Program-made: the position numbers and the translations under genes
Shown here: positions 5,744 through 54,626 of the stretch, one piece after another
Numbering within the stretch: position 1 is the stretch's first letter
How the letters are laid out: every line of letters starts with the position of its first letter
The notes under the pieces: model-generated
Database searches by the model: none
What the model was told of the DNA's origin: nothing
What the model saw: only the letters and a program-made list of their open reading frames with translations
Virus record (IMG/VR): IMGVR_UViG_3300045988_069178
DNA length: 55,078 nt
Source of the DNA: a virus
Direction: 5' to 3' (one strand)

Positions 5744-5958
5744 ATATGCCGCCTGTAACGGCTATCAAGAATTTTGTAATAAATAGTCGGGGGTATTAAG
5801 AAAAATCCTTGATAAGTTGAATTTCACACCTCTGTGCGAGGTAAAACCTCTCGGATAGTCTTGCACTACCCTTAACTGAACAAATCCAAAGAGGTAAATA
5901 TTGAAAGGAGGTCCATCTTGGTTGCAAAGATAGACTGTCAATAAAAAGTAAGCTGAAC
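5744..5958 (-). ncRNA. Structured non-tRNA spacer RNA within the tRNA array
   Basis: 215 nt with no T-loop. Contains an 11-bp stem UCAAGGAUUUU/AAAAUUCUUGA, the hairpin GAGGU-UUU-ACCUC nested in GUGC/GCAC, and the hairpin GCCG-UUACAGG-CGGC. Confidence 0.3.
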
Positions 5959-6029
5959 TGCCCTTGTTGGACTCGAACCAACGAATGCAGGAATCAAAAT
6001 CCTGTGCCTTACCGCTTGGTGAAAGGGCA
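5959..6029 (-). tRNA. tRNA-Gln (anticodon UUG)
   Basis: 71 nt: UGCCCUU-UC-ACC-AAGCGGUAA-GGC-A-CAGGA-UUUUGAU-UCCUG-CAUUC-GUUGG-UUCGAGU-CCAAC-AAGGGCA. From memory, this is close to bacterial tRNA-Gln architecture. Confidence 0.9.
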
Positions 6030-7444: not shown

Positions 7445-8155
7445 TTACTGGCTTTGTGGGATTTCTTGTACATCTTGCACAATGATTTCTTGTTGTGCAA
7501 TTTGACGAATATTAGAGCCTTGAGCGTCCCCAGATGGTCCGAGCTGTGGAAGGTCTGCGGCTGTTTTAATGGTCTTCGTGGCGCTTTCTCTGCTGACACC
7601 GGGAAGATTCCAACCGAAACGGCGATTCATGACCGCAAGCTGTCCGACTGGGTTCTTACCGGACCAGAGCCGAGCTTCTCCGCTAGATTCGTAATCTTTA
7701 GACAATTTTTGATATAAATTGTTTGCCGATGTACTTAGTTGCGGCGTTCTGCTCTCATTTCCCCAATTATATATAACATCTTCTCTTATACCAGTTAATT
7801 TACAATATCCTGATATAGTACATATTTTATTATACTTATAACACATATATATATAATAATCTGCTATATAGTTAAGATATTCATAATTATAACTATTACA
7901 ATTACTATTATTTATATTACTATATTGATTATTATAATTATTATTATTGTATCCCTGTAATTTACCCTTTAATTTTAGTCTGTTAGTACCCTTAAAAGTA
8001 TTATTATATACATAAATTAAAGCGGCATAAAAAAGGGATTGCGGAGCCGCTGCCATATCTTTAATGTTTTCATCTGTGCAAAATTGTTTGAAATGCATAT
8101 CAATCTCATTCTCAAAAAGTTCTTGACTTTCTGGTGCTTCCTGTACTTTCTCCAT
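7445..8155 (-). CDS. terS: Terminase small subunit with N/Y-rich low-complexity insertion
   Basis: 236 aa with a GGGGAAC RBS. The segment ISGYCKLTGIREDVIYNWGN ... ARLWSGKNPVGQLAVMNRRFGWN resembles the HTH and the conserved F-l-Kn-fGW block of Terminase_2-type TerS. Residues ~68-110 are N/Y-rich. Confidence 0.7.
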   Translation of the reverse strand: MEKVQEAPESQELFENEIDMHFKQFCTDENIKDMAAAPQSLFYAALIYVYNNTFKGTNRLKLKGKLQGYNNNNYNNQYSNINNSNCNSYNYEYLNYIADYYIYMCYKYNKICTISGYCKLTGIREDVIYNWGNESRTPQLSTSANNLYQKLSKDYESSGEARLWSGKNPVGQLAVMNRRFGWNLPGVSRESATKTIKTAADLPQLGPSGDAQGSNIRQIAQQEIIVQDVQEIPQSQ

Positions 8156-9094: not shown

Positions 9095-9364
9095 ATGAAA
9101 GCAAACGATACAATCAAAGTACATTTATACGATTTAAACAATAGGGAGATACGAACTAGAAACCATGACAAGACTTTTTGTGTGTACGAGAAAAACGGAA
9201 AACTTGGAATTGACTGGAATACAGAAAAAAGCCCGTACACATGCAAGGGTGATGTATTTACGCCACTCGAAACCTTTGCACAATCTGCAATATTTGAAAA
9301 TATTGAGACTAAGGAACTTTTTCACTTCTCAAATATCAAAAATGCAGTTGTTAGAATAGCATAG
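9095..9364 (+). CDS. Hypothetical protein (plus-strand operon, ORF A)
   Basis: 89 aa with an AGAGAGG RBS. No domain recognised. Confidence 0.65.
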   Translation: MKANDTIKVHLYDLNNREIRTRNHDKTFCVYEKNGKLGIDWNTEKSPYTCKGDVFTPLETFAQSAIFENIETKELFHFSNIKNAVVRIA

Positions 9365-9522
9365 CCGAAACGCTCCGCCTGGAGCGTCAGCCGCGGGACG
9401 GTCTCCCGGCTCTGATGATGGCAGACCAAAAAAGGCGGTCACTCCTACCAAGAACGAACCGCCACCAATCAAAAAAGAAAGGTAAGCCGATTATATCACA
9501 ATCGGCGAAATGGTACAAGATT

Positions 9523-10282: not shown

Positions 10283-10552
10283 ATGGCAATATATGAAAAA
10301 CTGAACACTTTAACAGCTGGAGAAATCCGCGGAAATTTAGAAAAATTTATATTTATCTATGGGAAAAAGGCGGCTAAAATCTTGGAGCTTGAAAAAATAG
10401 CAGATTTTTCTTTTTGGGATAATGGGCGGAGCGTAATTATATACACAGGTTCGCAGGCTGTTTTTGATTGTAACTATGATATTTTTTATGGCTTAAAAAG
10501 GCTTACAACTTGTTATAATAAAGGCGGTCTATTTTATGAATTTAATAATTAA
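10283..10552 (+). CDS. Hypothetical protein (ORF E)
   Basis: 89 aa from ATG 10283, with a GGAGGT RBS 8 nt upstream. Confidence 0.6.
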   Translation: MAIYEKLNTLTAGEIRGNLEKFIFIYGKKAAKILELEKIADFSFWDNGRSVIIYTGSQAVFDCNYDIFYGLKRLTTCYNKGGLFYEFNN

Positions 10553-10564
10553 TAACTTGATTGA

Positions 10565-10588
10565 GGGCGTACAATCTGCGCCCTTTTT
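10565..10588 (+). terminator. Intrinsic terminator
   Basis: GGGCG-UACAAUCUG-CGCCC followed by UUUUU. Confidence 0.7.
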
Positions 10589-10589
10589 G

Positions 10590-10628
10590 GCTTGCTCTGG
10601 TTTGGCTGGTTCGATTCCAGCCGCAAGC
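10590..10628 (+). ncRNA. tRNA-like acceptor/T-arm minihelix C
   Basis: GCUUGC-UCUGGUUU-GGCUGG-UUCGAUU-CCAGCC-GCAAGC, lying between two terminators. Confidence 0.5.
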
Positions 10629-10632
10629 ATTA

Positions 10633-10660
10633 AGCATATATTTTTATATGCTTTTCTTTG
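10633..10660 (+). terminator. Intrinsic terminator
   Basis: AGCAUAUA-UUUU-UAUAUGCU followed by UUUCUUU. Confidence 0.7.
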
Positions 10661-11259
10661 TGTACCTTGAAAAATTAATACAACAATGCTATGCTTATAT
10701 ATAAGGCTTTTTACACCTTTTAGGTGTACAAGTGTACCCGGTCGGGGCGGTGTGTGCTTTGGTATATCTTCTAGGGCTGGCGACAGCTTCCACAACTTGC
10801 AAGGGCATATTATACCCATTTTGTACAACGCTGTTAAGGGCGTTTTAAGATGTGCAGGTATTAACCCTTACAATTATGCACTTGTAAAATAAAACCACCG
10901 TACAAGTTAAACTGCAAAGCCACAACACCAAAATAAACGCGAACCGCAACCGGTCAAGTCTATATATAGTGCTTTACCATACTAAAGTTTTTCATCAATT
11001 TTTCAGGGCAAATCTGAACAAAATCGGGAACAAAAATTGAAATTCTGTGTAACCGATTTTTGGATTTCAAAATTGCATATGACGGGGGTATCAAAATTTT
11101 TGCATTATATTTTTGTAGGAAAATTTTTTCAATTTTTTAAGTAGGATTTGAACAAAATCTGAACCAAATTTTGAGATTTTTTAAAATTGAAATTATGAAT
11201 ATAAAAAGTCAACCCACGGGGGTAAAGAAAAACTTTACCTATATTCCGTGGGTTTTAAA

Positions 11260-11958
11260 TTAGTTTATAAAAATAATCGGTTTATCGTCATCAAAAAGAT
11301 TACTAACAACTTCCTGTCCTTTATCCACTAAGTAACAAGGAACTTTCTGGAATCGTCTAAGACCTTTGATGATTTCATATTTGTTGTTAATTCTATATAT
11401 AGTTCCTGCGAAATTGCCTTTATCAACAGGAATATAAGATTGCGTATCTAATGGAGCTGATATAGGTTTGTCAAGTTCATTAAGTTCTACAATATCTACT
11501 GCTTCAATCTTGCATAAATCACCATACTCACCTAATGATGGATATACTGGTGGGTTTAGTAACGCATGGTATATATCATCTATGTCACTATCATCAGCTT
11601 TGATGTATATAGTTGTATATAAATCAACTAGCATTAAATGATATTTAACTGTACTAACCCAGCCAGCATGGCTTCCATCTGCATAGTCTGTTATAATATC
11701 CCAACGCTTAAGTATTTCATCGCTAACCTTGTTAAAACGCTTGCCACCGTACCATTCTTTCTGTGTTCTGGTATTATAAACACCCTTGCCAGTAACAAAA
11801 TAATCTAATTTATGATACCTTTTCCATCGACACATTGAATGAATAAACCCATTAACTGTGCTAAATGGCGGCAAAGGGTAACAATCTGCACCTCTTGGTG
11901 CTAATGGATTGTTAAATCTAGCCATTTCTTGATACATTTTTAACCTTATAGCTCTCAT
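11260..11958 (-). CDS. cas5: Cas5-like RAMP protein (type I-B / Cas5t-like), stand-alone
   Basis: 232 aa from ATG 11958 with a GGAGG RBS. The N-terminus MRAIRLKMYQEMARFNNPLAPRGADCYPLPPFSTVNGFIHSMC fits the Cas5 signature (aromatic-R-x-P, then Y-P-L-P-P-x-S-T-x-x-G). YPSLGEYGDLCKIEAVDIVEL and GTIYRINNKYE...RRFQKV also match my memory of Cas5t. No other cas gene is present in the genome. Confidence 0.6.
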   Translation of the reverse strand: MRAIRLKMYQEMARFNNPLAPRGADCYPLPPFSTVNGFIHSMCRWKRYHKLDYFVTGKGVYNTRTQKEWYGGKRFNKVSDEILKRWDIITDYADGSHAGWVSTVKYHLMLVDLYTTIYIKADDSDIDDIYHALLNPPVYPSLGEYGDLCKIEAVDIVELNELDKPISAPLDTQSYIPVDKGNFAGTIYRINNKYEIIKGLRRFQKVPCYLVDKGQEVVSNLFDDDKPIIFIN

Positions 11959-12088
11959 AATAAAACCTCCAAAATAAAATAAGTTGCACCTATACAAAAT
12001 GTATCAATGCAACTTTCCACTATGGTTCTATTAAGGTAAAATGATATATTAATTATCAATTGTTTACATCTATTAAATAATAGCATTT

Positions 12089-12235
12089 TTAAGCATTACT
12101 GTCAATACAACATTTTTCCGTATAAATCAACGCCTTACTTGAATACTGGCATTGACTTAGTTCATATATCAACATTTCCTTTGTCATAGTCGGATTAGTT
12201 CTTTGAATTATCTTTAACAACTCGTCAATACTCAT
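12089..12235 (-). CDS. Hypothetical protein (48 aa, below cutoff)
   Basis: MSIDELLKIIQRTNPTMTKEMLIYELSQCQYSSKALIYTEKCCIDSNA. The ATG overlaps the upstream TAA (TAATG). Confidence 0.4.
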   Translation of the reverse strand: MSIDELLKIIQRTNPTMTKEMLIYELSQCQYSSKALIYTEKCCIDSNA

Positions 12236-12555
12236 TATCCCACTCTCCTAACTGCCCCTAAAACCATATCAACAATGTCAAATACTTCATCTCCATATGT
12301 TGCCACAAAATCGCACAATATCTCTTCTTGTTCGATAGGTAAATACACATCATAGGACATACAGATTGCGTGGCATACTTCGTGTATCAGCACTTTGCGT
12401 TGTATAAATCCACGCAAGGCATTTGATAGATAAATTGTATGTGTATTTCTATCAGTTACACCTAAGCTGATTGTGCCGTCTGACCGCTTTAATTCACCCG
12501 AATTTGAATTTTCATATTGCACTTGCCACATTGTGCCATTAATATTAAAAATCAT
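12235..12555 (-). CDS. Small zinc metallopeptidase-like protein (HExxH; ImmA/IrrE- or SprT-like)
   Basis: 106 aa from ATG 12555 with an AAAGGAG RBS. HEVCH motif within VLIHEVCHAICM. Confidence 0.6.
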   Translation of the reverse strand: MIFNINGTMWQVQYENSNSGELKRSDGTISLGVTDRNTHTIYLSNALRGFIQRKVLIHEVCHAICMSYDVYLPIEQEEILCDFVATYGDEVFDIVDMVLGAVRRVG

Positions 12556-12573
12556 CTGTATGCTCCTTTCTGA

Positions 12574-12609
12574 ATAAAACAAAAACCACTAACCGATATT
12601 GGCTAGTGG
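12574..12609 (-). terminator. Intrinsic terminator after the antirepressor-like gene
   Basis: Minus strand has an 11-bp stem (CCACUAGCCAA/UCGGUUAGUGG, one mismatch) followed by UUUUUGUUUUAUU. Confidence 0.6.
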
Positions 12610-12632
12610 CATTTGCTTAATGTATTTAATTG

Positions 12633-13484
12633 TTATGCACTCTTTACACAATAACACATCATCATTTCCTTAATTGCCAACTCATAAGCTGGCTTAAGGT
12701 CTTTATCGTTGGCAATTACATATAGCTTGTTGATTTTCTTAAGTTCAGACTTTTTAATGTCTGGTCTTTCTTCTAACGCTCTGCCGACAGCTCTCTGAAC
12801 TCTATCATCAAGTCTGCAATTTCTTTTCTGCATTAGTCTTTCGTAACTTTCTTTTCTTGCATACGAATACCTCTTATCTCTGGTATCGCCCTTGTTAAAG
12901 TAAGGACTTTCGGCAATCTTTGTAATGCAAGAATTGACCCATTTCTGGAAGCTCTCAACATCATCTACTTTTTGAAATGTTTCAGCAATAGCATTCTGTG
13001 TCTGTTTTACTTCTCTGACTTCTTTTGCAAGTTGCTTCTGTTCAAGCTCATTTCTTGATATTTGCTGTACAAGCAAGTTCATCAGCTTTGTTTGAGGGTC
13101 AAGCTGTTCAAGGTCAATCACTTTCTGCTTAACTCTTTCTTCTACTGTTGCAAAATATTCTCTTGCCTGTTCCGCTTTTTCTCCGTTACCCTTGACAGAT
13201 AACTTCTTAGCAAAATGTGCTGTTAGTTTGTAATCGTCAGCAAAATTGCCTCTCCCTTGTTCATTCTTCATTGATGAAGAGTAAAAATAATCCTCATTTT
13301 CTGTGGCAAATTCATTGTCAAGAATGTTTGACTTAACCCACCTTGAGTAATTCTGTGGCGCAAGTTCTAAAAACTGATACAGTTTTCTTGCTGTTGTCAT
13401 TCCCTTATCATCAATTCCTAGCTCAACCTCAATGGGTGTCTTGTAGTTCATATCCTGTGTATTACTTATAGTTTCTAATAACAT
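12633..13484 (-). CDS. AntA/AntB-type phage antirepressor-like protein
   Basis: 283 aa. TARKLYQFLELAPQNYSRWVKSNILDNEF...DDYKLTAHFAKKLSV...AREYFATVEE matches my memory of the AntA domain. The C-terminus is coiled coil. Confidence 0.7.
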   Translation of the reverse strand: MLLETISNTQDMNYKTPIEVELGIDDKGMTTARKLYQFLELAPQNYSRWVKSNILDNEFATENEDYFYSSSMKNEQGRGNFADDYKLTAHFAKKLSVKGNGEKAEQAREYFATVEERVKQKVIDLEQLDPQTKLMNLLVQQISRNELEQKQLAKEVREVKQTQNAIAETFQKVDDVESFQKWVNSCITKIAESPYFNKGDTRDKRYSYARKESYERLMQKRNCRLDDRVQRAVGRALEERPDIKKSELKKINKLYVIANDKDLKPAYELAIKEMMMCYCVKSA

Positions 13485-13556
13485 TGTTTATTCCTCCAAC
13501 TATTGATGATTATTGCTATGTCCAGAATGCTGTTAAATCATCATAGAGGAATAATT

Positions 13557-13700
13557 CTATAAGCTAGTGCATTTCTTATACTTTGCTAACTCCTCTTCAA
13601 GCTCACGGATTTTGTTCACCGCTTCATCATATGATTTAACCATTTTGTCATACTGCCATTCTGGAATCATAATTGATTTAAAACTCATTGGTGCTGTCAT
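13557..13700 (-). CDS. Hypothetical protein (47 aa, below cutoff)
   Basis: MTAPMSFKSIMIPEWQYDKMVKSYDEAVNKIRELEEELAKYKKCTSL with a strong AGGAGG RBS. Confidence 0.55.
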   Translation of the reverse strand: MTAPMSFKSIMIPEWQYDKMVKSYDEAVNKIRELEEELAKYKKCTSL

Positions 13701-13912
13701 AATATTTCCTCCTGTGAATAAAGCTACAATACAGAGATTGCTTCATCTTTTGTATAATCGCTATCTGTTTTTATCGTGCTTTGGTTATTTTATTATATTT
13801 TCTTGTTACAATCTCTATATTGTCTGCTTGCAATCCCATTAGAAACATAGTAATATATTTATGTTCCTCTGTGGAATTAGTGAGAGTAGTTGTTTATCGT
13901 GCTTGGTTACAA

Positions 13913-14086
13913 CTACTCTTTTTCTTTAGCTAAAAGCAGATGTATTCCTCTTCTGATAGCCTCACCTTTTGTGATATTGTGCTGTTCACAATAGATTTTC
14001 AGCTTTCTTTCTGTTTCTTCATCAAGTCTGATACTAAATCTACTTGACTTCGGATTATCGGCCTTAGGTCTGCCTGCTGGTGACAT
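13913..14086 (-). CDS. Ribbon-helix-helix (CopG/Arc-like) regulator
   Basis: 57 aa from ATG 14086 with an AAAGGAAG RBS. GRPK...SRFSIRLDEETERKLKIYCEQHNITKGEAIRRGIHLLL is a typical RHH pattern. Confidence 0.7.
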   Translation of the reverse strand: MSPAGRPKADNPKSSRFSIRLDEETERKLKIYCEQHNITKGEAIRRGIHLLLAKEKE

Positions 14087-14116
14087 AAACATCACTTCCT
14101 TTCTTGTCACACCTTT

Positions 14117-14145
14117 ATTATATTTATGTCACACCACATTGTCAA
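14117..14145 (-). promoter_or_regulatory. Consensus sigma-A promoter flanked by GGTGTGACA direct repeats
   Basis: Minus strand reads TTGACA-17 nt-TATAAT. The 9-mer tgtcacacc occurs at 14105-14113 and 14127-14135, bracketing the -10. Confidence 0.7.
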
Positions 14146-14191
14146 GCATTATTTTAAAATATTTTTCACTAGCCAATATTCAGTTATCAAT

Positions 14192-14228
14192 GTGCAAAAA
14201 CAGGCTATGAATATTGCTACTCATAGCC
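14192..14228 (-). terminator. Intrinsic terminator
   Basis: Minus strand GGCUAUGA-loop-UCAUAGCC followed by UGUUUUUG. Confidence 0.65.
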
Positions 14229-15398: not shown

Positions 15399-16187
15399 TT
15401 AGCAGCCACATCCTGTATTGCAACCACAGCCATATGCGTAACCATAAAGGTTAGAAGCTGGGAATGAAGGGACCGGTGTAGGTCTTACTGCATCAATAAT
15501 CTGATTTGTCTGTGCTGCCATTGTAGTAGTCAGAAGTGCGTTCTGTCTATCCTGTGAAGCTGCTCTGCGTAAATCATTGTTCTCTGCCTGTAAGGTTGCA
15601 ATCTTGTCATTTGTCAGGAAGTCAAGAATTGCTCTTGTTCCTGCCTGTTGGCTGTCAATAATATCTCTTGTATTATTGTTCATTGTGTTCTGTAAAGCAC
15701 AGGTGTTAGTTGCTAAATTGTAATTAATTCCCTGAATGGCTTCTCTCGTCTCACAGCAGCAGTTAGCAAGCTGTGACTGTAATGCGTTTGTATTCTGCAT
15801 ATTAGCGACTGTATCAGCGTTAATAGCCTGCTGGATGCCATAGCCTGTCTGCATGATATTTGTGTTGATACCATTAAAGCCAGTAAGCATACTGTTGTTC
15901 ATGGCATAGAAGCCATCACAAAGTCCGTTAGAAATGCCATCTAACTTGCTGATAACTGCAGAATTATCAAATCCTCTCTGAATATCAGCCTGTGTAGCAG
16001 CTGTTGCAACATAGCCACCGCCATTGTTGCCACCAAAACCGCCAAATCCACCATTGCCCCATCCAAAGAGCAATGCGAATACAACGATTATCCAAAGCCA
16101 TCCGCCGTCAGCCCATCCGCCGTTATTGCCGTTGCCGTCAATATTAGCGACTAATGGTACGCTGGCACAATTTGAGTTTGAAAACAT
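15399..16187 (-). CDS. Gly-rich membrane-anchored N/Q/T-rich protein with Cys-rich C-terminus
   Basis: 262 aa from ATG 16187 with an AGGAGG RBS. Has a TM helix (WLWIIVVFALLFGW) flanked by G/N runs, conserved Cys (CCCE), and the C-terminal YGYAYGCGCNTGCGC. Confidence 0.65.
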   Translation of the reverse strand: MFSNSNCASVPLVANIDGNGNNGGWADGGWLWIIVVFALLFGWGNGGFGGFGGNNGGGYVATAATQADIQRGFDNSAVISKLDGISNGLCDGFYAMNNSMLTGFNGINTNIMQTGYGIQQAINADTVANMQNTNALQSQLANCCCETREAIQGINYNLATNTCALQNTMNNNTRDIIDSQQAGTRAILDFLTNDKIATLQAENNDLRRAASQDRQNALLTTTMAAQTNQIIDAVRPTPVPSFPASNLYGYAYGCGCNTGCGC

Positions 16188-16257
16188 ATTGTTACCTCCT
16201 AAAAATATATTCATAAAGATGTCACCTAGGTAGTTTGCAAAGACATCTAATATGCTA

Positions 16258-16488
16258 CTAATTACCAAATCTGCTTTTTATCTGATTAAATACATCATCT
16301 GCATTTAATCCCTTTTCCTTGCATAAATTTCTAGCCATCTGCTCTATGCCTTGCATATTACCCTGCTGTGCCATCTGCATAGTGTTTTTCATCATAGGAT
16401 TGCTCATAATCTGATTATTTCCCATCATCTGTTGTATAAACTGTTGCGGACCAGCTTTCATCATCTGAAAAATGTTAATTGGGTTCAT
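16258..16488 (-). CDS. M/Q/N-rich small protein
   Basis: 76 aa of low complexity (QQFIQQMMGNNQIMSNPMMKNTMQMAQQGNMQG). Confidence 0.55.
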   Translation of the reverse strand: MNPINIFQMMKAGPQQFIQQMMGNNQIMSNPMMKNTMQMAQQGNMQGIEQMARNLCKEKGLNADDVFNQIKSRFGN

Positions 16489-17299: not shown

Positions 17300-18661
17300 C
17301 TAAAAATTCTTTAATTGTATTTCGATATTTCCATTGACTATAATAATCTTATCTATTATAGTTTTAAGTATCATATTTTTTTGTTTCTTGTCGATGTTAT
17401 CCCAAATGTCGGCAAGTTTTTTTATGTTCTCATAAACAAACTCTTTTTTCTGCGTATTGATTGCATTTTTGCTTTCTGTAGCAATATTTGATTTCATTTC
17501 TTTAATCTGCGTTTCAAGTTCCTTAATCATTTCTAAGACAGTATTGTTTCCATCAGCGTACAGATTGTATAATCTTTTTAGCTTAATCTGTTCTTTTTCA
17601 AGCTGTGATTGCATAATTTCAAGTTTTGTCGCCTTTTCCTTTGGTTTGTAAGATGATAAGTCAAGTGATATTTTAAGGATTTCTTCTTCTATCTGCTTTT
17701 CTATTTCATCAGCCCATTCAAGCGAATTATCACAATTTGCATTGTAATTAGGCAAATATGAAAGTTTTTTATCTCTTGAGCAGCAATAAATCTTATGTTT
17801 TTCACTTCCCCATTTCTGATAACGCATTTTGCAACCGCAAACGCCGCAATAACATAATCCAGTAAGTAGATTAGGTTCGGTTATGCAGGAAACTTTTGCT
17901 GAACGCCTTGACCTTCTTAGTTCTAATGCGAGCTCAAATCTATCTTTATCAAAAACAGCTTCGTGCCTGCCTCGATACACCTTGCCTTTATAGGGTATCA
18001 TTCCGACGTTGACAACACTGGTCAAGATGCTCCTTGTTACAATTTCGGACTTAAAACCACAAATTTCCTTAATTTTGGCGTCTGAATATCCGGATATAAA
18101 TAATTCAAGTGCTTTCCTTGCTTGCTCCGCACGTTCTGGAATAGGTATTAATATGCCTTGCTCTTTACTATATGAGTAACAATAAGGCAAATTACCGCCG
18201 CCAAACCAATAACCTTGCTTAACTCGCTCAAGCATACCGCCACGCATACGCAACATCATAGTATTTTTGTCAAGCTGTGCAAATACAGCCATCATCTGCG
18301 TGTAAGCCTGCTCCATAGGGCTGTTGTAACTGACAGAATCGTGAACACATTTAAACATGACATTATACTTTTGAAACACTTTCTCGATAAGATATATCCC
18401 ATCAATCATATTTCTTGATAGCCTATCAAGCTTAAAAGCTACAACACAGCTTACTCTTTTACGGCTACAATCGTTCACAAGTCTTTGAAGCTCCGGTCTA
18501 TCCATATTAGTGCCGGTGTAACCATCATCAATATACCAATCTGATATAATTAACTCATTTTTTCTGCAATAATTTTCAATATCTCTTTTCTGGCTATCAA
18601 GTCCATTGCCCTCAACAGCCTGCTTTTCAGTAGATACTCTCATATAAGCAACACATTCCAT
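17300..18661 (-). CDS. Large serine recombinase (integrase/invertase)
   Basis: 453 aa. Has an N-terminal resolvase catalytic domain (YMRVSTEKQ ... DRLSRN), a recombinase domain, a zinc ribbon (CYCGVCGCKM...YCC) and a C-terminal coiled coil. Confidence 0.9.
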   Translation of the reverse strand: MECVAYMRVSTEKQAVEGNGLDSQKRDIENYCRKNELIISDWYIDDGYTGTNMDRPELQRLVNDCSRKRVSCVVAFKLDRLSRNMIDGIYLIEKVFQKYNVMFKCVHDSVSYNSPMEQAYTQMMAVFAQLDKNTMMLRMRGGMLERVKQGYWFGGGNLPYCYSYSKEQGILIPIPERAEQARKALELFISGYSDAKIKEICGFKSEIVTRSILTSVVNVGMIPYKGKVYRGRHEAVFDKDRFELALELRRSRRSAKVSCITEPNLLTGLCYCGVCGCKMRYQKWGSEKHKIYCCSRDKKLSYLPNYNANCDNSLEWADEIEKQIEEEILKISLDLSSYKPKEKATKLEIMQSQLEKEQIKLKRLYNLYADGNNTVLEMIKELETQIKEMKSNIATESKNAINTQKKEFVYENIKKLADIWDNIDKKQKNMILKTIIDKIIIVNGNIEIQLKNF

Positions 18662-42930: not shown

Positions 42931-45900
42931 TTAATATGGAAAAGCCGCTTGACCTGTCATATTTGTGTATTGATTGGCATATCTCTGTGTTGTTCTGAAC
43001 ACTTCCTGTCCGTCAATCTGTACAACAATGTTTCCGTTTTGCTGTCCTATATTTGCATTAGCAAATACTTCTGACATGCCCTCAATAACAGCTTGCTTAA
43101 TGCCTTGCGTTATCTGTTCGTTATTTGCGACTGCTGTCTTACCATTACTGAATTTACCAACCATTTCATTATGGTTAGCAAAGAAAAGTCCGTCCTCTGG
43201 GAAACCGCCTGTTGCATATTTAGGTGCAATTTTAATATGAAAAGCACTTGCAGAAACATTGCCGTCACTATCTAAAACTTCACCTGTAAATTTACTTGTA
43301 AAACTGTTAGACAAACTGTTTCTAATTCGCCAAGCATTATTATTGATTGTGTCTTCCAAAGAGTTCATCAATTGAATTCCGGTATCTTCTCCAATGCTTC
43401 CTGCATTTACACCATTGACAATACCTTGAAAAGCTCTTACTGCCGCATATGGTATATTATTAATATTATTTGCAAAATTGTCACTTAGCGATTTTCCTGC
43501 ATTAGCACCAATATTTCCCATTTTTGAAAATGTGTTTTCAGTATCACTGCCAATAATTCCAAGCCTTGTAGCAATTTCATTTTTTACATTTTCAAACGTA
43601 TTAATCATTTCATCATGCGTTTTTTGAGTGTTGCTTGACATGGTGCTTGTCATTTCGTTTGAACAATATTCCATGTCGTTCGTAGCTCTAATCCATTCAT
43701 CTTTAGCATTGTTATAAGAATCTTCGTTGGATTTTACAGCTTTTTCAAGTTCCCTTACTTGATATTCAAGGTCAGTTGCCGCCGCAACGCCACTTGTATC
43801 TAAGTCCTCTGCAATTCCTTGTGTCCTTTGCATTGCATTTGCCAATTCGTCTTGCTTTTCTTTTAAGCGTTCTTTACTATCAGTAAGTGCAGCTTCCATT
43901 TCGCGAACATTCTTCTTGGCTTTATATTCGTCTTTTATGAGCTGGATGTACTCTTCTCTTAATGCCTCAAGTCTATACTCTTCTTTTTTCTTTTCTATAA
44001 GTTTTTCAACTTCTTCTCTTGTTCCTTTATATGCTCCTGTTCCACTGTCAATAGCTTCGCTTAGCTCTGGTACTTTCTTTATGAGTTCTTGCGAAACATC
44101 TTTGAGCATTTGTTGTTGTGTGGTTGTTAAATCAGTTTGGTCTGCTAATTCAAAATATTTTGTTTTAAGAGCGTCTATATCATCATAGGTTGTTGTATTT
44201 TGCCAGCCTTTTTCAATAGTGTCTAAAGAGCTTGCTACCTCCTTTGTCGTCTTATCTACTTCATCACGTACATTTGCATATTCATTGCAATATTTAGTTA
44301 CTTCGGTTGATGTTAAATCAATATTGTCATTAATAGACATTATTCCTGCAATTAAGGCTGTTATTCCTGCCATAGCCAACCCTGCCGGTCCGAAAGCTAC
44401 ATATAGCCCCGCCGCACCAATAGCGGCACCGCCAGCAATTTTAGCAATTGAAGCTACGAGGTTGTCACTGCCTTTTGTCACGTCATCAAATCCGCTTTTA
44501 ATAAGTTTAAATTCTCCAAAAGCTGATACGCCGCCAAGTAATGCTTTTTGGAATAGTGTCATATTATCTCTAGCAGTAGTTATTCCGCTGTTTAAAGCTG
44601 TGAATAATCTTTTATCCTTAACTACGCTTCCAAAGTCCTTAAAGCTTGTCGTGACCTTTGCAAGTTTAGGATGAAAAGAAAGGAGTGTAGCCGCTGTTTC
44701 GTCATATCCCATTTTAGATAGTTTTGTCGCTAACACTACATCTTCTGTTGCTTTACTTAGGGAATTAAGCTTATTGTACGTTTTAGTTATGCTTTTTATT
44801 ACATTTGTACTGCCTATTGCCCCAAGTACTTTAGGAACTGCCACAAGCGATATAAGAAGTGTTTCTATAGGTGCTTTAGATAGCACGCCTAAGTATAACT
44901 CAATAGCCGCTTTTAAGCCTTGTACAAGCACTTTAGCCGCCGATTTAAACACCTTAGTCCAATCAATTCCTGCAAGGAAACCACCCATCTTTTGACCGAT
45001 TGTAAACCAAGGAACTTTATCAATGGCATCTGCAAACCAGTTAAGTATTCCTGCCACAAGGTTAGATGTATCTTGTCCTGCCTTAAAGAAATCACCAACT
45101 GCAAAATCTTTAAAAATCTGTTTAACAGGTTCAAGTGCTTTCTCTATCTTATCAGCCCAAGCAACAGCGGAATTTTCCATATTGGCAAATGCTTTATTCC
45201 ATGCCGCTTCATATTCTGCCGCCGCCTTAGCAATATCGTCTGTCAAATCAATAGTGCTACCGCCGCCGCCACCGCTTGAACCCTTGCTTGAGCTTGTATC
45301 GTCCTGCAATTTATTAATTTCATCAAATCCCATAAGGGATAATGTAGCTTTCTTAGCTGAATCAGCTACGTCTTGGTAGCCGTCTGAAATATCTTCTAAG
45401 CCGTCTGATGTGTCTTTATAGCCACTTTGTCCGAAGCTTTCAAAGTCAATCTTAACGCCCATTAAAGAAGCAAGATTGACTAATAATCTTTTGATTGCAA
45501 TAGTTACTCCGTTTGCTACCGGCATAACCTTTGAAAGAATTGGGATAAATAGCTGTCCTGCTACCATTCCTACTTCCTTCATGTTGTTACTGAATTGGCG
45601 TAACATATTTGATGGGCTGTTAATCGTGTTGGCTAAATCGCCCCAAGATACTTTTGATTGGTCTAATATTGCTAACACTCTTAACTGTTGTTTTTCCATC
45701 TGTGTCATTTCAGACACCGACTTAGAAATGCCTAAGTTGTAAGCATACGTCGCTAATGTAGCATTGGTAATATCAATACCATACTTGTACAATGCCCTCG
45801 ATTGTCCGATTAAACCGCTTTGTAAGTTCTGTGCTACTGTTGAATAGTCCACATTGAAAAGTGAGCTTATATCGCCCGCAAGCATTGTCATTGACTTTGT

Positions 45901-48470: not shown

Positions 48471-48887
48471 TTACAATAATCTGTCATTTGCCGCTATCAT
48501 TCTTCTGAATCTAGCGGTACTCTTATGTACTTTATTGCTGATTGAGAACTCTGGCATTGCATTGCCTTGAAATCTCATTGTCTTGAATGTATCTGTAATT
48601 ATCGCCATAACCTTGCGACAGTCAGACTTGCTTGTGTTAGTGGTAACATCTACTTGAAATGTTGCTAACAATGCGTTTATTGTCTGTCCGTCAAGTGTTT
48701 GTCCTTGTTCTACTGCTGGCAGTAAATGAATGTATACCGCCGGGAATACTGCTTGACCGCTATTTTCTCCCTCATTGGTTATGACTATCTTTGGATATGT
48801 CTTTTTAAGCTGTGTTAGGGTTTTAGCCTTGACAAGTGCTGTGACTGTATTCTCGAGGTCTATCGCCCAATCGTTTGCATTTGCCAT
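48471..48887 (-). CDS. Tail completion / terminator protein
   Basis: 138 aa. Call rests on position in the head-tail joining block. Confidence 0.55.
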   Translation of the reverse strand: MANANDWAIDLENTVTALVKAKTLTQLKKTYPKIVITNEGENSGQAVFPAVYIHLLPAVEQGQTLDGQTINALLATFQVDVTTNTSKSDCRKVMAIITDTFKTMRFQGNAMPEFSISNKVHKSTARFRRMIAANDRLL

Positions 48888-53033: not shown

Positions 53034-54626
53034 TTATTTATCTGTTCTGCTCTTATCTATAACCGGACTATTTTCTGTCTGGTCTGATAAGTCTTGCATT
53101 GTGCGGTCTTTATTAGGTGGCTGTTCTCCATCCCCACCCTCTGCTTGGTTCTGTGTATCTTTGTTAATTATGCTGTCTTGATATGCCTTAACCATTTCTC
53201 CGCTTCTCGCTACAACATCGTTAGGGTCATCAAAGAATGGAATTGCATCAACTGTATCTTTAAGGCTAAATCCGTGGCTTATCAATGTTGCCATGGCATT
53301 AACCTTGGTTGACATTTCATAAGTTTTTTGTCGCTTAATGTTAGGCTTTACATCTCTTGCCCTTAATTTAAGTAATGGATTACTGCTAGCAACATTGTTT
53401 GACAGCTTGATAGCCGCAAGAACAACTTTTATTTCTTCCATTTTGCAGCCATCAGTAATTAATTGTTGTTTTGCCGCTGCTGTTTCAGCCTGTGACCAAC
53501 CTGTTGCGTCTGACATTGCAACTCCTGTACTACCACCACTGTTATCATTTCGTTGTGGCACATTGCATTTCTGCAAGATTATCTGTCGCCTTGATTGGAT
53601 ATTATTAAGCATACCTGTGTAATCGTAATTGATTGCAAGTGGCTCAACTATTGGAGTTTTGCCATCTGCTGATGTGTAGGTCTGCATCCATTCTCCAGAT
53701 TTTGGCTTTCTTACTTTTTCAGTAATGCGTTGCGTTCCATCTTTATCAACTGTTGTTTCCTGTTCAACTGGGAAATCAACATCATTTGTATGCCATACCG
53801 CCTGTGTATTCTGTTCGACATCATTTGTAAAATCTGAAATGAGTAGGTTTAAGTTATCCATTTCAGATATTTGCCGTTCAAAACAGCCCATTCTATCAAA
53901 TGACCTTGTATATTCAATGATAGGAATTTTATGCAGCGGGTTTTCTTCTCCGCTTCTCTCCAAAAACCCCCATTTTGTTTTCCCTTTATTTTTTCCGTTA
54001 GTGATTTTTATTCCGTCGGTAATTTCATATCTCGTATCTTTGGTAAAACAAGTGTAATACCTGGTGCCACTGTGCTTATCTTTTATATATGTCCCGGCAA
54101 GAACAACTCTCTTGTCGCTGTAGGCGGTTGATCTTACAACAAATGTTGTCCTTGGGTCTAATACATTATATGTGAAATAGCTTTCCCCATCCTCGTATTC
54201 TGTATTTATATCAATAAGGACATATCCAACACCACCGATTTCAACATATCTTGCAAGTTTCTGCTGCTTCTGTCTTGCGTTCTGTGATTCGTAGCAACTG
54301 TTTAATTCCGCTATAGCTTTTGTAAGGTTAGAATCCTCATTGTCGCCATTTTGAACTAACGTTATAGGATTTCCCCACTTAAATCCTAAATTAAACTCTG
54401 TGACCTCGTTAGCCACATTATCACAGCACTCGCAGTCAATGTCTGGTCTGTAAGTCTTTGGATTTTTCCTAACTATCGGCTGTATTCCTGCGTCATAATC
54501 AAGAAGAAACTGTATTCTGTTGGAATTAATATCATGTTCCAAAATTGCTTCACGCAAAATTGGTATTATATTGTCAGGCGTTATTTCTTTTGCACCTGTA
54601 TAAATAGCAATTCTTCCTGTCTGCAT
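53034..54626 (-). CDS. Portal protein (SPP1 gp6-like)
   Basis: 530 aa. Size, position and the N-terminal ITPDNIIPILREAILEHDINSNRIQFLLDYDAG pattern are typical of SPP1-type portals. Confidence 0.88.
   Translation of the reverse strand: MQTGRIAIYTGAKEITPDNIIPILREAILEHDINSNRIQFLLDYDAGIQPIVRKNPKTYRPDIDCECCDNVANEVTEFNLGFKWGNPITLVQNGDNEDSNLTKAIAELNSCYESQNARQKQQKLARYVEIGGVGYVLIDINTEYEDGESYFTYNVLDPRTTFVVRSTAYSDKRVVLAGTYIKDKHSGTRYYTCFTKDTRYEITDGIKITNGKNKGKTKWGFLERSGEENPLHKIPIIEYTRSFDRMGCFERQISEMDNLNLLISDFTNDVEQNTQAVWHTNDVDFPVEQETTVDKDGTQRITEKVRKPKSGEWMQTYTSADGKTPIVEPLAINYDYTGMLNNIQSRRQIILQKCNVPQRNDNSGGSTGVAMSDATGWSQAETAAAKQQLITDGCKMEEIKVVLAAIKLSNNVASSNPLLKLRARDVKPNIKRQKTYEMSTKVNAMATLISHGFSLKDTVDAIPFFDDPNDVVARSGEMVKAYQDSIINKDTQNQAEGGDGEQPPNKDRTMQDLSDQTENSPVIDKSRTDK

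Follow-up and report, generated by a model that had tools for sequence, protein, structure and literature searches.

The locus and its gene content

The window, by which we mean the whole stretch of 55,078 nucleotides analyzed here, is a complete temperate siphophage that encodes a terminase, portal, capsid, tape measure protein, endolysin, serine integrase, and RecT. Its minus strand carries an orphan Cas5b-derived gene, which we call cas5v, behind a leader that encodes an RNA resembling a CRISPR RNA (crRNA) (Table 1). The 232-amino-acid reading frame with its own ribosome-binding site, as reported in the preliminary description, is real, and all the peptide blocks quoted from it occur in its translation. 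A conserved noncoding stretch lies downstream of the gene.

Table 1. Features of the cas5v locus and sites in the phage matched by host spacers
Feature	Position	Strand	Remarks
cas5v, orphan Cas5b-derived gene, 232 aa	11260..11958	-	ATG 11958, stop 11260
Ribosome-binding site GGAGG	11966..11970	-	8 nt 5' of cas5v ATG
Intrinsic terminator past cas5v, CCCACGG..CCGTGGG plus T-run	11200..11252	-	could be bidirectional
Leader encoding the crRNA-like RNA	12105-11971	-	promoter, 5' handle, pseudo-spacer, truncated I-B repeat, terminator
Promoter TTGACA, 17 nt, TGcTATTAT (extended -10)	12077..12105	-	11/12 consensus matches plus TG motif
First pseudo-repeat remnant (TTAATAG), then 8-nt crRNA 5' handle ATGTAAAC	12062..12076	-	
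Pseudo-spacer AATTGATAATTAATATATCATTTTA, allele A, 25 nt	12037..12061	-	
Second pseudo-repeat (PsiR2) CCTTAATAGAACCATAGTGGAA	12015..12036	-	without 3' handle; ends within 1 nt of presumed Cas6 site
Hairpin GTTGCA..TGCAAC plus TTATTTTATTTT	11971..12013	-	terminator or attenuator between small RNA and ORF
48-aa ORF	12089-12235	-	conserved upstream neighbor of cas5v
Gene for M78/ImmA-like small HExxH protein	12235-12582	-	Pfam Peptidase_M78 E = 5.8e-4, below cutoff
Protospacer, Lachnospira hominis NSJ-43 type I-B spacer	45484..45514		31/31 nt, flank CCG
Protospacer, L. hominis I-B spacer	48706..48737		32 nt, 1 mismatch, flank CCG
Protospacer, L. hominis I-B spacer	53616..53651		36 nt, 2 mismatches, flank CCA

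The phage had been said to contain no other cas gene and no CRISPR array, and both statements hold. Comparison of the 331 ORFs of the window with 80 type I-B loci (10-kb flanks) showed that only cas5v resembles anything in them. Hidden Markov models for Cas7, Cas8b, and Cas3 found no match in the window, and a search of its 55 kb for a CRISPR array found none. Genomic type I-B loci encode Cas8b-Cas7-Cas5-Cas3 together with arrays in 77 of 80 cases; cas5v lies neither between cas7 and cas3 nor beside an array.

The gene had also been assigned to an accessory island. The association with the antirepressor and RHH genes is not conserved. In 80/80 related phages, the cas5-like gene is accompanied by the 48-aa gene and the M78-like gene; these two neighbors are syntenic with it but transcriptionally separate. 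Only 4 to 6 of the 80 have the AntA and RHH block (about 12600-14200), and for this reason we rejected the antirepressor and RHH genes as parts of the system.

Cas5v is a diverged Cas5b homolog

Cas5v is a true but strongly diverged homolog of Cas5b, as evidenced by profile and structural comparisons, the two checks that had been proposed for the original Cas5 assignment. The NCBIfam Cas5t/Cas5b model TIGR01895 matches amino acids 1 to 218 (model positions 1 to 204 of 217) at E = 4e-22, although the score of 78.9 bits falls short of the curated cutoff of 96.7. In PADLOC, the Cas5b model matched at 1e-22, together with 12 further Cas5 models. The Pfam family Cas_Cas5d, which had been suggested as well, reached only E = 0.18 (12.2 versus a cutoff of 23), TIGR02593 scored 12.1 versus a cutoff of 17.8, and no PHROGs family was found for Cas5v.

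An AF2 model of the protein (pLDDT 80.7) has the Cas5 fold according to Foldseek. All 13 PDB matches at E <= 1e-3 are type I Cascade entries, with TM scores of about 0.35 to 0.53. The Cas5 subunits of I-E, I-A, I-B, and I-C Cascades rank first (E of 2e-6 to 1e-3, TM of about 0.5), and the leading chains are Cas5e, Cas5a, I-B Cas5, and Cas5c. In the model, the fold is conserved over the full length of the protein, beyond the RNA-binding patch. Family-wide invariant residues are retained too, namely L29, P30, S33, T34, G37, H40, C43, G57, G99, P136, G143, and R201.

Neighbor joining (numpy NJ) with bootstrapping placed Cas5v in a clade of 26 sequences (88% bootstrap) that contains only solo copies and no operon-encoded Cas5b; those members whose context was checked sit on phages or other mobile elements. 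Cas5v thus does not group with operon-encoded Cas5b proteins. By distance, its nearest operon-encoded relative is the Cas5b of Lachnospira eligens, and its mean distance to operon Cas5b proteins is 1.63, versus 0.97 among those proteins themselves.

Relatives of Cas5v are found on 218 IMG/VR contigs, and the orphan-Cas5 clade as a whole numbers 594 representatives. The proposed search of related phages for the same solo gene was productive: the 80 fetched loci, on contigs of about 55 to 60 kb, are syntenic, and cas5v is intact in all of them and under strong purifying selection (dN/dS of 0.10 over 80 copies). A 408-kb contig carries a further copy within a prophage. There are no flanking cas genes. 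A family-specific peptide scan of 185k species representatives yielded no close relative of Cas5v. IMG/VR scans with the family members P0016, P0013, and P0020 gave no match, and the genomic contexts of these three were drawn from assemblies. In INPHARED, a megablast search with 9 to 15 kb of the window found no match, and tblastn with Cas5v matched only two "Listeria phage" records. These are UNVERIFIED records with complete I-B operons, so we rejected them as cases of phage cas5 and used their cas5 genes as genuine Cas5 comparators.

One of them, "Listeria phage LM 4-11-1," shows that database contamination of this kind happens, and the preliminary description had named an assembly chimera that joins the phage to a cas locus of the host as a way in which it could be wrong. 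For the window, we found no support for either a chimera or a decaying, functionless pseudogene. The intact, syntenic loci, their selection, and the prophage copy refute such an artifact, to which we give next to no credence.

A crRNA-like RNA precedes cas5v

The gene had been described as standing alone, with no repeat anywhere near it. The second point was misleading, and the first did not survive: the one sequence of the window that resembles a CRISPR repeat is found 78 nt 5' of the cas5v ATG, on the same strand, and cas5v is predicted to be cotranscribed with a crRNA-like RNA that copies a host cas-regulating mini-array. The second pseudo-repeat, PsiR2, agrees with a genuine I-B repeat at 24/26 positions and reaches a local alignment score of 21; the best of 727 control windows scored 16. 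An ungapped search for solitary repeats, which tolerated at most 8 substitutions over 30 nt or 2 over the 3' 16-mer, gave no match because the second unit has 9 substitutions and the first an internal deletion. Rfam, searched at E <= 10 on positions 10550 to 12150, returned nothing relevant and no CRISPR-DR family.

The handle ATGTAAAC matches the 3' end (..GGAATGTAAAT) of I-B repeats in Lachnospira and 50 other loci. It begins exactly 7 nt past the -10 box, a spacing that recurs in subfamilies L176 and L090, and the 5' end of the RNA would be set by transcription initiation at the handle. The 100-nt bin that holds the promoter is the most conserved of the region (96% over 80 loci), and PsiR2 is invariant in 76/78 loci. 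The leader is predicted to fold with -26.9 kcal/mol (z = -3.85), forming a stable hairpin 5' of the ribosome-binding site. A hairpin and T-run of other sequence occupy the equivalent place in subfamilies L176, L178, L090, L101/L102, and L191. Independent lineages have the same truncations in common: 7 nt from the -10 box to the handle and a last repeat that ends in ..TGGAA before the terminator.

Coupling between the RNA unit and orphan cas5 genes is seen in 8 to 10 of the 12 lineages of the monophyletic orphan-Cas5 clade. The unit lies within about 150 nt of cas5v in the window and in P0006, P0009, P0015, P0016, P0017, P0019, and L101/L102, while L094 and L096 are weaker cases; across about 385 kb of these loci, no other repeat match scored 18 or more. 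Lineages P0014 and P0025 of the clade have no adjacent RNA unit; the unit is absent from members L001 and L095. A search for a repeat-like unit adjacent to the cas5 genes of the AcrIB3 and pLM33 loci found none, which led us to reject coupling as a general property of Cas5-derived anti-CRISPRs. The protein can evidently exist without the RNA, given P0014, P0025, AcrIB3, and the pLM33 cas5.

The pseudo-spacer copies host regulators

The pseudo-spacer reproduces, in register, those of host regulatory mini-arrays. In allele A, the first 16 nucleotides are identical (16/16; 17/17) to the pseudo-spacer of an L. eligens mini-array that lies upstream of cas6 (locus L109). Allele B' agrees with the L. 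hominis mini-array at 15/16 positions, and the P0015 lineage agrees with that of Butyribacter intestini at 16/16, when 0.00135 in-register matches of at least 15/16 would be expected by chance. Across 85 related loci, the pseudo-spacer occurs as two alleles with different seeds, whereas neither the handle nor PsiR2 varies.

We read host mini-arrays, along with the promoter sites they target, directly from three loci (L109, L106, and L098). The L. eligens target, CCA followed by AATTGATAATTTATATTGACA, overlaps the cas6 promoter at its -35 box. For the viral RNA, the L109 site, CCA plus AATTGATAATT, offers an 11-nt seed and 15 of the first 16 positions; it overlaps the TTGACA -35 box, 85 nt ahead of the cas6 start codon. 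Its CCA flank agrees with the CC[A/G] of three natural protospacers. Also, the pseudo-spacers of L102 match the I-B locus of their own metagenome-assembled genome just upstream of cas6, beside CCA, at 16/17 positions. A generic test for enrichment of CCN plus a 12-nt seed upstream of cas6 was not significant relative to shuffles (4 matches against 1.87), and a repeat of it gave 6 against 3.07, with 31/300 shuffles at least as high. Because this statistic is not significant in these AT-rich promoters, we base the claim of targeting on the identity of the pseudo-spacers with host regulators.

The protospacers themselves reveal the pressure under which the phage lives. Three type I-B spacers of L. 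hominis match it, each with a CC[A/G] flank consistent with a CCN PAM. Allele A matches the L. eligens regulator, but the anti-phage spacers come from L. hominis; together they indicate a gut Lachnospira host rather than one particular strain. The phage that carries an ortholog 81% identical to Cas5v (IMGVR_UViG_3300045988_038347) is syntenic, and its predicted host is Lachnospira.

A proposed two-part anti-CRISPR unit

We propose, with moderate confidence, that the leader and cas5v form a two-part anti-CRISPR transcription unit directed against Lachnospira type I-B systems. An anti-I-B role is well supported indirectly by the AcrIB3 precedent, the dN/dS of 0.10, the L. hominis spacers, and the surroundings of one relative, which has an AcrVA2-like gene and part of a Cas8c next to it. 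The pair of Cas5v and RNA probably hijacks or disables the host type I-B defense.

One part would be a viral crRNA-like RNA ("Cracr") that mimics the CreR-type regulatory mini-array of the host. Its near-consensus promoter would fire at or beside the 8-nt 5' handle to give an RNA in which the handle is followed by the 25-nt pseudo-spacer, a repeat cut short at the presumed site of Cas6 cleavage, and the terminator. This RNA would load into host Cascade. Because complementarity to the target is only partial, consisting of the 11-nt seed after the CCA PAM, Cascade should occupy the host cas6 promoter at its -35 region and leave the DNA uncleaved. The bound complex would shut down the cas operon, and the RNA would also compete with immune crRNAs. 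The other part, Cas5v, would be made by read-through of the terminator and, we infer, take the position of Cas5 at the 5' handle in Cascade. It would most likely cap the phage crRNA-like RNA and nucleate hybrids with host Cas7, Cas8b, and Cas6, and/or it may oust host Cas5 from immune complexes. Since Cas5v scores below the Cas5b cutoff and is 34% identical to host Cas5b, its compatibility with Cas7 and Cas8b is only presumed.

Whether the protein would help or poison Cascade is where readings of the unit diverge. A real possibility, which we advance tentatively, is that Cas5v is a dedicated partner of the viral RNA, such that guide and handle-capping subunit together recruit host Cas7, Cas8b, and Cas6. 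The hybrid Cascades would then do nothing but repress the host cas operon and outcompete existing immune complexes, and this strategy of bringing one's own Cas5 would have arisen once and spread among phages of Lachnospiraceae and related Clostridia. The capture of crRNAs that had been suggested for the gene may thus be near the truth in another sense, with Cas5v capping the phage's own crRNA-like RNA.

We find it doubtful that Cas5v is, like AcrIB3, an autonomous poison that replaces host Cas5 to leave a Cascade unable to engage DNA, with the upstream RNA as an independent second inhibitor that shares its promoter. AcrIB3 does coimmunoprecipitate with Cas6-tagged Cascade and abolishes CRISPRi, where overexpression of genuine Cas5 has no effect; orphan-clade members such as L001 and L095, the latter from a classic acr-type island, do without the RNA; and bicistrons of independent inhibitors, such as RacrIC1-AcrIC5, exist. 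However, a Cracr needs a Cascade that binds DNA, so an AcrIB3-like block of DNA binding by Cas5v would counteract the cotranscribed RNA unless complexes with short spacers were spared, as AcrIF24 is reported to do. Cas5v also falls outside the AcrIB3 clade (28% identity), and its tight, recurrent adjacency to the RNA, in either gene order across 8 to 10 lineages, points to functional coupling. The original suggestion of a subunit-mimic anti-CRISPR stands as far as the anti-I-B role goes, but a simple poison subunit is no longer the most economical account, because the RNA needs a Cascade competent for DNA binding.

Cas5 proteins of type I Cascades bind the 5' handle of the crRNA, and Cas5v keeps the family-invariant residues. 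It might, then, act outside Cascade as a sponge for the ATGTAAAN handle of host crRNAs, blocking assembly, or as a chaperone that stabilizes the phage Cracr; the Cas3 homolog AcrVIA2 is a precedent for action at the level of crRNA. We consider this unlikely, as Cas5 is not known to hold the handle tightly on its own when Cas7 is absent, Katz et al. located AcrIB3 within Cascade, and Cas5v keeps the full-length fold rather than the RNA-binding patch alone. Very unlikely, in our judgment, is a leader that does nothing to the host, being either a decayed CRISPR-repeat relic or a cis-regulatory attenuator of cas5v. The reduction of the first repeat to about 7 nt, the missing handle of the second, the stable hairpin ahead of the ribosome-binding site, and the weak generic targeting statistic would all fit such a leader. 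Set against them, its 100 nt are the most conserved of the region, identical "designed" truncations occur in independent lineages, the pseudo-spacers equal host regulators in register far beyond chance, and variation between the alleles is restricted to the seed.

Significance

Two recent lines of work, one on viral Cas homologs with anti-CRISPR activity and one on crRNA-like RNAs by which viruses silence cas operons, have so far been described separately. This locus and its clade, found in abundant human-gut Lachnospiraceae phages, join both in one transcription unit, which we infer to be a two-part anti-I-B module. If protein and RNA cooperate, this would be the first virus to supply both a Cascade subunit and a guide to commandeer the host complex, and such cooperation would explain how Cracr-type repression can be fast despite a pool of preloaded Cascades. 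Should protein and RNA instead act independently, this would simply be another operon of the acr-racr type. The locus also provides a testable system for type I-B regulation through CreR circuits in gut Firmicutes, with two natural pseudo-spacer alleles that track two host species. The compact, promoter-defined crRNA architecture could also serve type I CRISPRi tools.

Comparison with known systems

Genuine Cas5b proteins, such as those of L. hominis NSJ-43 and L. eligens BIOML-A1, have fold and family in common with Cas5v. They differ in that about amino acids 57 to 100 are replaced in Cas5v, where the W69, G71, G72, R85, and W86 motifs take the place of RYEF and RH, and in that cas5v has no flanking cas7 or cas3.

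AcrIB3, from a plasmid or prophage of Listeria seeligeri, is a Cas5 homolog that copurifies with Cascade and blocks DNA binding, and its homologs were reported only in Listeria (Katz et al., bioRxiv 10.1101/2023.06.24.545427). Like Cas5v, it is a full-length Cas5b homolog that occurs alone on a mobile element (237 versus 232 aa), and both keep the N-terminal motif PLPP[FY]ST..G..H. The study by Katz et al. reportedly appeared later, in 2024, in Nature. AcrIB3 differs from Cas5v in being 41% identical to Listeria Cas5 and in residing within a multigene protein operon with no nearby repeat-like unit. In our tree, it forms a separate clade with P0042 (100% bootstrap) and P0195 (59%), and the join of this clade to that of Cas5v has 4% support.

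Table S3 of the same preprint (bioRxiv 10.1101/2023.06.24.545427) is a tblastn list of orphan viral cas genes in IMG/VR. It gives IMGVR_UViG_3300045988_038347 as cas5 / CAS-I-B, at the exact coordinates of the gene that is 81% identical to ours, and UViG_..._047237, which is in a 55%-identical Cas5v subfamily. A solo Cas5 as an anti-CRISPR is, therefore, not a new idea, because AcrIB3 is known and this ortholog is listed. The catalog differs from the present work in being a tblastn listing, in a paper that makes no mention of mini-arrays, Racr, or CreR.

The closest parallels to the RNA are the viral Cracr RNAs, which repress cas promoters and act with coencoded Acr proteins (Liu et al., bioRxiv 10.1101/2024.10.29.618823, with a list of 219 Cracr), and the reported phage copies of host I-B regulatory mini-arrays (Shmakov et al. 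2023, PMC10120712). In these elements, which are often beside acr genes, a short pseudo-spacer sits between degenerate repeats. Its PAM-proximal part is the same as in a CreR-type mini-array that the host carries upstream of cas6, and its target is in a cas promoter, at a site with a type I-B PAM. The window RNA has the attributes of a Cracr: repeat-like sequences flank a short spacer on a virus, outside any CRISPR-Cas locus; the PAM-proximal nucleotides in common with a host CreR/CreA spacer (16/16, or 15/16 for allele B') exceed the minimum of 9; and partial complementarity to a cas promoter beside a valid PAM is present in L109, although generic enrichment is weak. It differs in having a transcription start at the handle in place of the first repeat. 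Liu et al. filtered out matches adjacent to cas genes, give I-B cases as predictions only, and studied AcrIF23/24 as partners, not a Cas homolog; neither they nor Shmakov et al. mention Cas5. Going by the texts of these papers, an RNA coupled to a Cas5 homolog appears to be unreported.

Finally, RacrIC1 and AcrIC5 are cotranscribed as a bicistron (Camara-Wilpert et al. 2023, PMC10651486), and in Racrs, as in the window RNA, a repeat mimic directly follows the promoter. RacrIF1 works by means of its portion ahead of the site that Cas6 cuts and has no functional 5' handle, which excludes Cas5 and Cas8 from its complex (PMC10651486), whereas the window RNA keeps the handle and a pseudo-spacer matching a host regulator. 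It is thus no lone repeat mimic without a regulator-matching spacer, and a handle and pseudo-spacer identical to the host regulator make it a Cracr, not a Racr, under the rule of Liu et al.

A diverged Cas5b derivative in a temperate phage

The product of the orphan gene cas5v contains the Cas5 peptide blocks quoted in a preliminary description of this phage, and profile searches confirm that it is related to type I-B Cas5 over its full length. NCBIfam TIGR01895 aligns residues 1-218 of Cas5v with positions 1-204 of its 217-position model (E=4e-22), at 78.9 bits, which is lower than the curated NCBI cutoff of 96.7. The PADLOC Cas5b model matches at 1e-22 and twelve more Cas5 models match as well, while Pfam Cas_Cas5d and the N-terminal TIGR02593 domain give marginal matches only. 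A search of PHROGs with Cas5v returned no family, and IMG's own label for cluster members of the family is "Cas5t." Structural comparison agrees with the description, as the best PDB matches of an AlphaFold2 model built from 10 relatives (pLDDT 80.7, pTM 0.71) are Cas5 subunits: Cas5e comes first (6c66_M, 2e-6), and I-A Cas5, I-B Cas5 (8ip0_A), Cas5c, and the Cas5 of an I-B CAST (8fcj_A, 1.6e-5) are also matched, with TM values of ~0.5. Based on these profile matches and on the modeled fold, Cas5v is a genuine yet strongly diverged Cas5b derivative. It retains the family-wide invariants L29, P30, S33, T34, G37, H40, C43, G57, G99, P136, G143, and R201. The orphan clade differs most from operon Cas5b at residues 57-100, where W69, G71, G72, R85, and W86 stand instead of the RYEF and RH motifs.

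As a complete temperate siphophage, the window also encodes a tail protein, an endolysin, RecT, and proteins resembling SbcC and DnaD. Cas5v is the only 1 of 331 window ORFs that resembles any product of 80 type I-B loci (with 10-kb flanks); none of these ORFs matched an HMM for Cas7, Cas8b, or Cas3, and no tandem or interspaced array was found in the window. The earlier claim that other cas genes and arrays are absent thus stands, except for one crRNA-like unit in the cas5v leader.

IMG/VR holds 218 contigs with a relative of Cas5v. In each of the best 80 of these (88-95% amino acid identity, contigs of ~55-60 kb from human gut) the gene is intact and unchanged in length, with a pairwise dN/dS of 0.10 at a median dS of 0.34, and a 93%-identical copy lies within a prophage on a 408-kb contig. 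These occurrences rule out an assembly artifact. The preliminary description also placed cas5v in an accessory island; the AntA and RHH genes that it named exist but are present in only 4-6 of the 80 related phages, whereas an M78-like small gene, a 48-aa gene, and cas5v are present in all 80.

Other elements were observed as well. A hammerhead ribozyme sits in the hypervariable stretch that separates the cas5v cassette from a Cro/CI-like HTH gene, and the 100-nt bin that contains it (9401-9500) is common to 47 of the 80 related loci, while its flanks are not. On the 408-kb contig (L087, 4306-5432), STAS (SpoIIAA-like) and HATPase (SpoIIAB-like) genes plus an 85-aa truncated sigma-70 region-2 ORF at the prophage edge suggest that the prophage is an intervening element inside a sigF-like sporulation sigma-factor gene.

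Features of the window
Feature	Position	Strand	Remarks
Large terminase	447-2243		
int-alpA RNA motif	4980-5047	minus	44.6 bits
tRNA genes	5326-5408, 5958-6029	minus	
Low-complexity protein	7445-8155	minus	236 aa, Asn/Tyr-rich; no family match
Type II hammerhead ribozyme	9363-9430	plus	Rfam RF02276; 63.9 bits (gathering 37); E=5.5e-11
Lone tRNA T-arm/acceptor-like fragment	~10598-10630	minus	GGCTGGAATCGAACCAGCC; edge of variable region
Noncoding DNA 3' of cas5v	10900-11255	both	~350 nt
cas5v terminator	11252-11200	minus	
cas5v ORF	11958-11260	minus	ATG 11958, stop 11260; 232 aa; GGAGG 11970-11966
Hairpin GTTGCA..TGCAAC + TTATTTTATTTT	12013-11971	minus	followed by GGAGG and ATG
PsiR2 (second pseudo-repeat), repeat part	12036-12015	minus	CCTTAATAGAACCATAGTGGAA; 22 nt
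Pseudo-spacer	12061-12037	minus	AATTGATAATTAATATATCATTTTA; 25 nt
Handle	12069-12062	minus	ATGTAAAC
Spacing	directly after -10 box	minus	TTAATAG; 7 nt
cas5v promoter	12105-12077	minus	TTGACA-17-TGcTATTAT; near-consensus
Antirepressor AntA	12633-13484		
RHH gene	13913-14110		
Low-complexity protein	15399-16268	minus	289 aa, Gly/Asn/Cys-rich; C-terminal CGCNTGCGC; no family match
Serine integrase	17300-18661		
Tape measure	42931-46899		
L. hominis NSJ-43 I-B spacer match	45514-45484		31/31 nt
L. hominis NSJ-43 I-B spacer match	48737-48706		32 nt, 1 mismatch
Major head protein	51277-52308		
Portal	53034-54626		
L. hominis NSJ-43 I-B spacer match	53651-53616		36 nt, 2 mismatches

A crRNA-like unit in the cas5v leader

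The 100 nt past the cas5v promoter form the best-conserved bin of the region (96%). ATGTAAA followed by T, C, G, or A is the 3' end of I-B repeats in Lachnospira and ~50 other loci (e.g., the Lachnospira hominis repeat GATTTAATAGAAACATAGTGGAATGTAAAT), and in type I systems in general the repeat 3' end becomes the 8-nt 5' handle of the mature crRNA. The 22-nt leader element agrees with a genuine I-B repeat at 24/26 positions, has a local alignment score of 21 versus a maximum of 16 in 727 same-phage control windows, is the sole repeat match scoring at least 18 in the 55 kb, and ends within 1 nt of the expected Cas6 cut. Given the handle match and the repeat match ending at the Cas6 site, the leader is a single crRNA-like unit, comprising a handle at the probable transcription start, a 25-nt pseudo-spacer, a 3' repeat part, and a terminator. 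Its predicted fold has an MFE of -26.9 kcal/mol (z = -3.85).

The noncoding DNA just 3' of cas5v is conserved in 78-79 of the 80 related phages. It contains two copies of a ~60- to 75-nt unit that both terminate, on the plus strand, in ..AAAATTGAAAT, which resembles the handle of other CRISPR types, together with promoter-like and terminator-like sites. Comparison with I-B repeats and Rfam families gave no match; this stretch might be another small RNA.

Correspondence with host CreR-type regulators

In the type I-B locus of Lachnospira eligens (L109), a mini-array upstream of cas6, on the opposite strand, reads ..TTTGGG/ATGTAAAT/AATTGATAATTAATATAATCAAC/TTTTAATAGCTACATTTTGGAA. The site targeted by this mini-array, CCA/AATTGATAATTTATATTGACA, lies 85 nt before the cas6 ATG and overlaps the TTGACA -35 box, which is the CreR-type autoregulatory arrangement of Shmakov et al. 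and Liu et al. The first 17 nt of the window and L. eligens pseudo-spacers are identical, and so the window RNA shares the 11-nt seed complementarity to that promoter. L. hominis has an analogous circuit (L106; pseudo-spacer ATTAGATAATTATTATATAATT, target CCT/ATTAGATAATTTTTATATTGACA). In the phage lineage of the window, 85 loci show two pseudo-spacer alleles: allele A, of the L. eligens type, in 39 loci including the window, and allele B/B' (AATAGATAA[C/T]TATTATATCATTTTA; ~39 loci), which matches the L. hominis type at 15/16 positions. Neither the handle nor the repeat part varies in 76 of 78 loci.

An in-register test compared 15 phage pseudo-spacers with all 54 handle-adjacent 16-mers upstream of cas6 in 68 I-B loci. 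Three pairs agreed at 15 or more of 16 positions, versus 0.00135 expected by chance (window allele A with L. eligens, 16/16; the P0015-lineage unit with Butyribacter intestini, 16/16; allele B' with L. hominis, 15/16), and 10 pairs agreed at 13 or more, versus 0.10 expected. A cruder "CCN + seed" enrichment test in AT-rich cas6 promoters was not significant and is not used as support. Liu et al. recognize viral crRNA-like anti-CRISPR RNAs (Cracrs) by at least 9 PAM-proximal nucleotides in common with CreR or CreA and by location on a mobile element outside a cas locus; because it shares both features, the cas5v leader is, as judged from its sequence, a type I-B Cracr.

Degenerate two-repeat mini-arrays were also seen just upstream of cas6, ~3.3-3.7 kb upstream of cas5, in numerous genuine I-B loci from Clostridia and Bacilli (L098, L100, L104, L106, L108, L109, L110, L115, L126-L128, L141, L145, L148, and L150). 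This distribution is consistent with CreR-type autoregulation being common in these I-B systems.

Host and CRISPR pressure

Scanning species-representative genomes gave 80 loci, and 77 of them are genuine I-B operons accompanied by arrays; the highest identity of an operon Cas5b to Cas5v is 34-35% (Butyribacter, L. hominis, and L. eligens). Three spacers in the I-B array of L. hominis NSJ-43 (L106) match the window, each protospacer having a 5' flank of CC[A/G], and a fourth matches a sister phage. These matches indicate that the host is a Lachnospira whose I-B system has met this phage lineage. In INPHARED, "Listeria phage LM 4-11-1" (L006, OR846720.1) and OR848150.1 (UNVERIFIED_ORG) carry a complete Cas8b-Cas7-Cas5-Cas3 I-B operon, probably as host DNA or a mis-binned contig and not as a phage-borne system.

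Ancestry and recurrence of the pairing

A neighbor-joining tree built from 109 sequences places Cas5v in a 26-member clade (88% bootstrap) that includes every solo copy found in phages, prophages, and MAGs and no operon-encoded Cas5b. AcrIB3, a Listeria Cas5 homologue that is 38% identical to Cas5 and inhibits type I-B (Katz et al., bioRxiv 10.1101/2023.06.24.545427), forms a separate group with P0042 (a 70%-identical representative) and P0195, the latter on a conjugative-element-like contig. The mean Kimura distance between Cas5v and operon Cas5b is 1.63, versus 0.97 among operon Cas5b. By phylogeny, Cas5v is an old co-option of Cas5b, independent of AcrIB3.

When orphan-clade loci (~385 kb) were scanned with 54 genuine repeats, crRNA-like units were found within ~150 nt of cas5v and nowhere else.

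crRNA-like units at orphan cas5 loci
Lineage or locus	Position of unit	Remarks
Window lineage	cas5v leader	all loci tested
P0006	leader	score 17
P0009	leader	first repeat nearly intact
P0016	leader	
P0015	directly 3' of stop codon	two units, own promoter
P0017	directly 3' of stop codon	two units + terminator
P0019	after gene, overlapping stop codon	
L101 (10717-10830), L102 (2155-2370); Eisenbergiella MAG	directly 3' of stop codon	2-5 units, 47-48 nt period, 16-18-nt pseudo-spacers
L094 (AcrIB3-like clade)	within ~150 nt	weaker case
L096	opposite strand	weaker case

The same scan found no unit near cas5v in P0014 and P0025, and none was found at the AcrIB3 locus on Listeria seeligeri plasmid p60 or at the solo cas5 of Listeria monocytogenes pLM33. 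Whatever the lineage, the final repeat closes with ..TGGAA and is followed immediately by a hairpin and T-run; the hairpins vary in sequence but keep their position. The handle begins exactly 7 nt past the -10 box in the window lineage, L176, and L090. In the Eisenbergiella loci the pseudo-spacers are near-copies of one another, and so they are multiplexed versions of one guide, not acquired spacers. The four mutually similar pseudo-spacers of L102 match, at up to 16/17 nt, a site flanked by CCA that lies just ahead of the cas6 promoter within the I-B locus of the same MAG (L156).

Genomic contexts vary: P0014 and P0017 lie at a prophage end beside lysis genes, overlapping an HTH gene, and P0015 and P0019 in phage early regions. 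P0025 lies in an island with an AcrVA2-like gene and a Cas8c (Csd1) fragment, next to an integrase. At L095 (8052-9876), such an island unites two orphan cas homologues, the 32%-identical Cas5v relative and a 280-aa Cas8c (Cas_Csd1) fragment, with an AcrVA2-like gene (PF26125) and an adjacent phage integrase.

Possible roles of the RNA and Cas5v

That the window RNA copies host regulators directing Cascade to the cas6 promoter is well supported by these sequence comparisons. Transcription would start at the handle, and host Cas6 would trim the 3' end at PsiR2, a cut that would also free the small RNA from any cas5v mRNA made by read-through. Host Cas7 and Cas8b may then assemble onto the phage RNA, and the resulting complex would repress the cas operon and compete with immune crRNAs.

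Cas5v itself could be a partner of the phage RNA, capping it and nucleating hybrid complexes, a handle-binding sponge, or a poison subunit like AcrIB3, which works upstream of DNA binding and coimmunoprecipitates with Cas6-tagged Cascade, whereas overexpressed genuine Cas5 has no effect (Katz et al.). However, a protein that blocked DNA binding in general would work against the cotranscribed Cracr, a conflict that AcrIF24 reportedly avoids by sparing short-spacer complexes (Liu et al.). Because of this conflict, and because RNA and gene stay adjacent in either order across deep divergence, we favor a Cas5v that enters Cascade in functional connection with the RNA. The composite explanation, in which the locus is a Cracr-cas5v module directed against type I-B systems, seems to us somewhat better than an even bet.

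Comparison with known systems

Katz et al. listed 358 orphan viral cas genes from IMG/VR. Their Table S3 includes IMGVR_UViG_3300045988_038347 (L177; predicted host Lachnospira; cas5, CAS-I-B, 40462-39866), whose gene is 81% identical to cas5v in a phage syntenic with the window at 78-93% nucleotide identity, and UViG_..._047237, a member of a 55%-identical subfamily. Consequently, the solo Cas5 and its anti-CRISPR reading in the preliminary description, in part confirmed and in part supported here, were already in the literature as a prediction for this family and are not new as stated. Mini-arrays go unmentioned in Katz et al.

Viruses are likewise known to encode crRNA-like RNAs that silence cas promoters, often alongside Acr proteins (Liu et al.; Shmakov et al.). 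Liu et al. tested V-A, I-E, and I-F cases, only predicted I-B, and filtered away matches adjoining cas genes, while Shmakov et al. described phage copies of I-B mini-arrays in Clostridium perfringens and Fusobacterium phages. A Racr-Acr bicistron is already known, and the CasPR preprint states that Cracr repression "depends upon host Cas nucleases." Cas5 is not mentioned in Liu et al., Shmakov et al., or the work on the Racr-Acr bicistron, and a full-text literature search for a Cas5 homologue linked to crlRNAs or Cracrs found no paper. The RNA half and the Cas5 half each belong to a known kind; what appears to be new is their pairing, together with the existence of a monophyletic clade of Cas5v proteins accompanied by crRNA-like RNAs.
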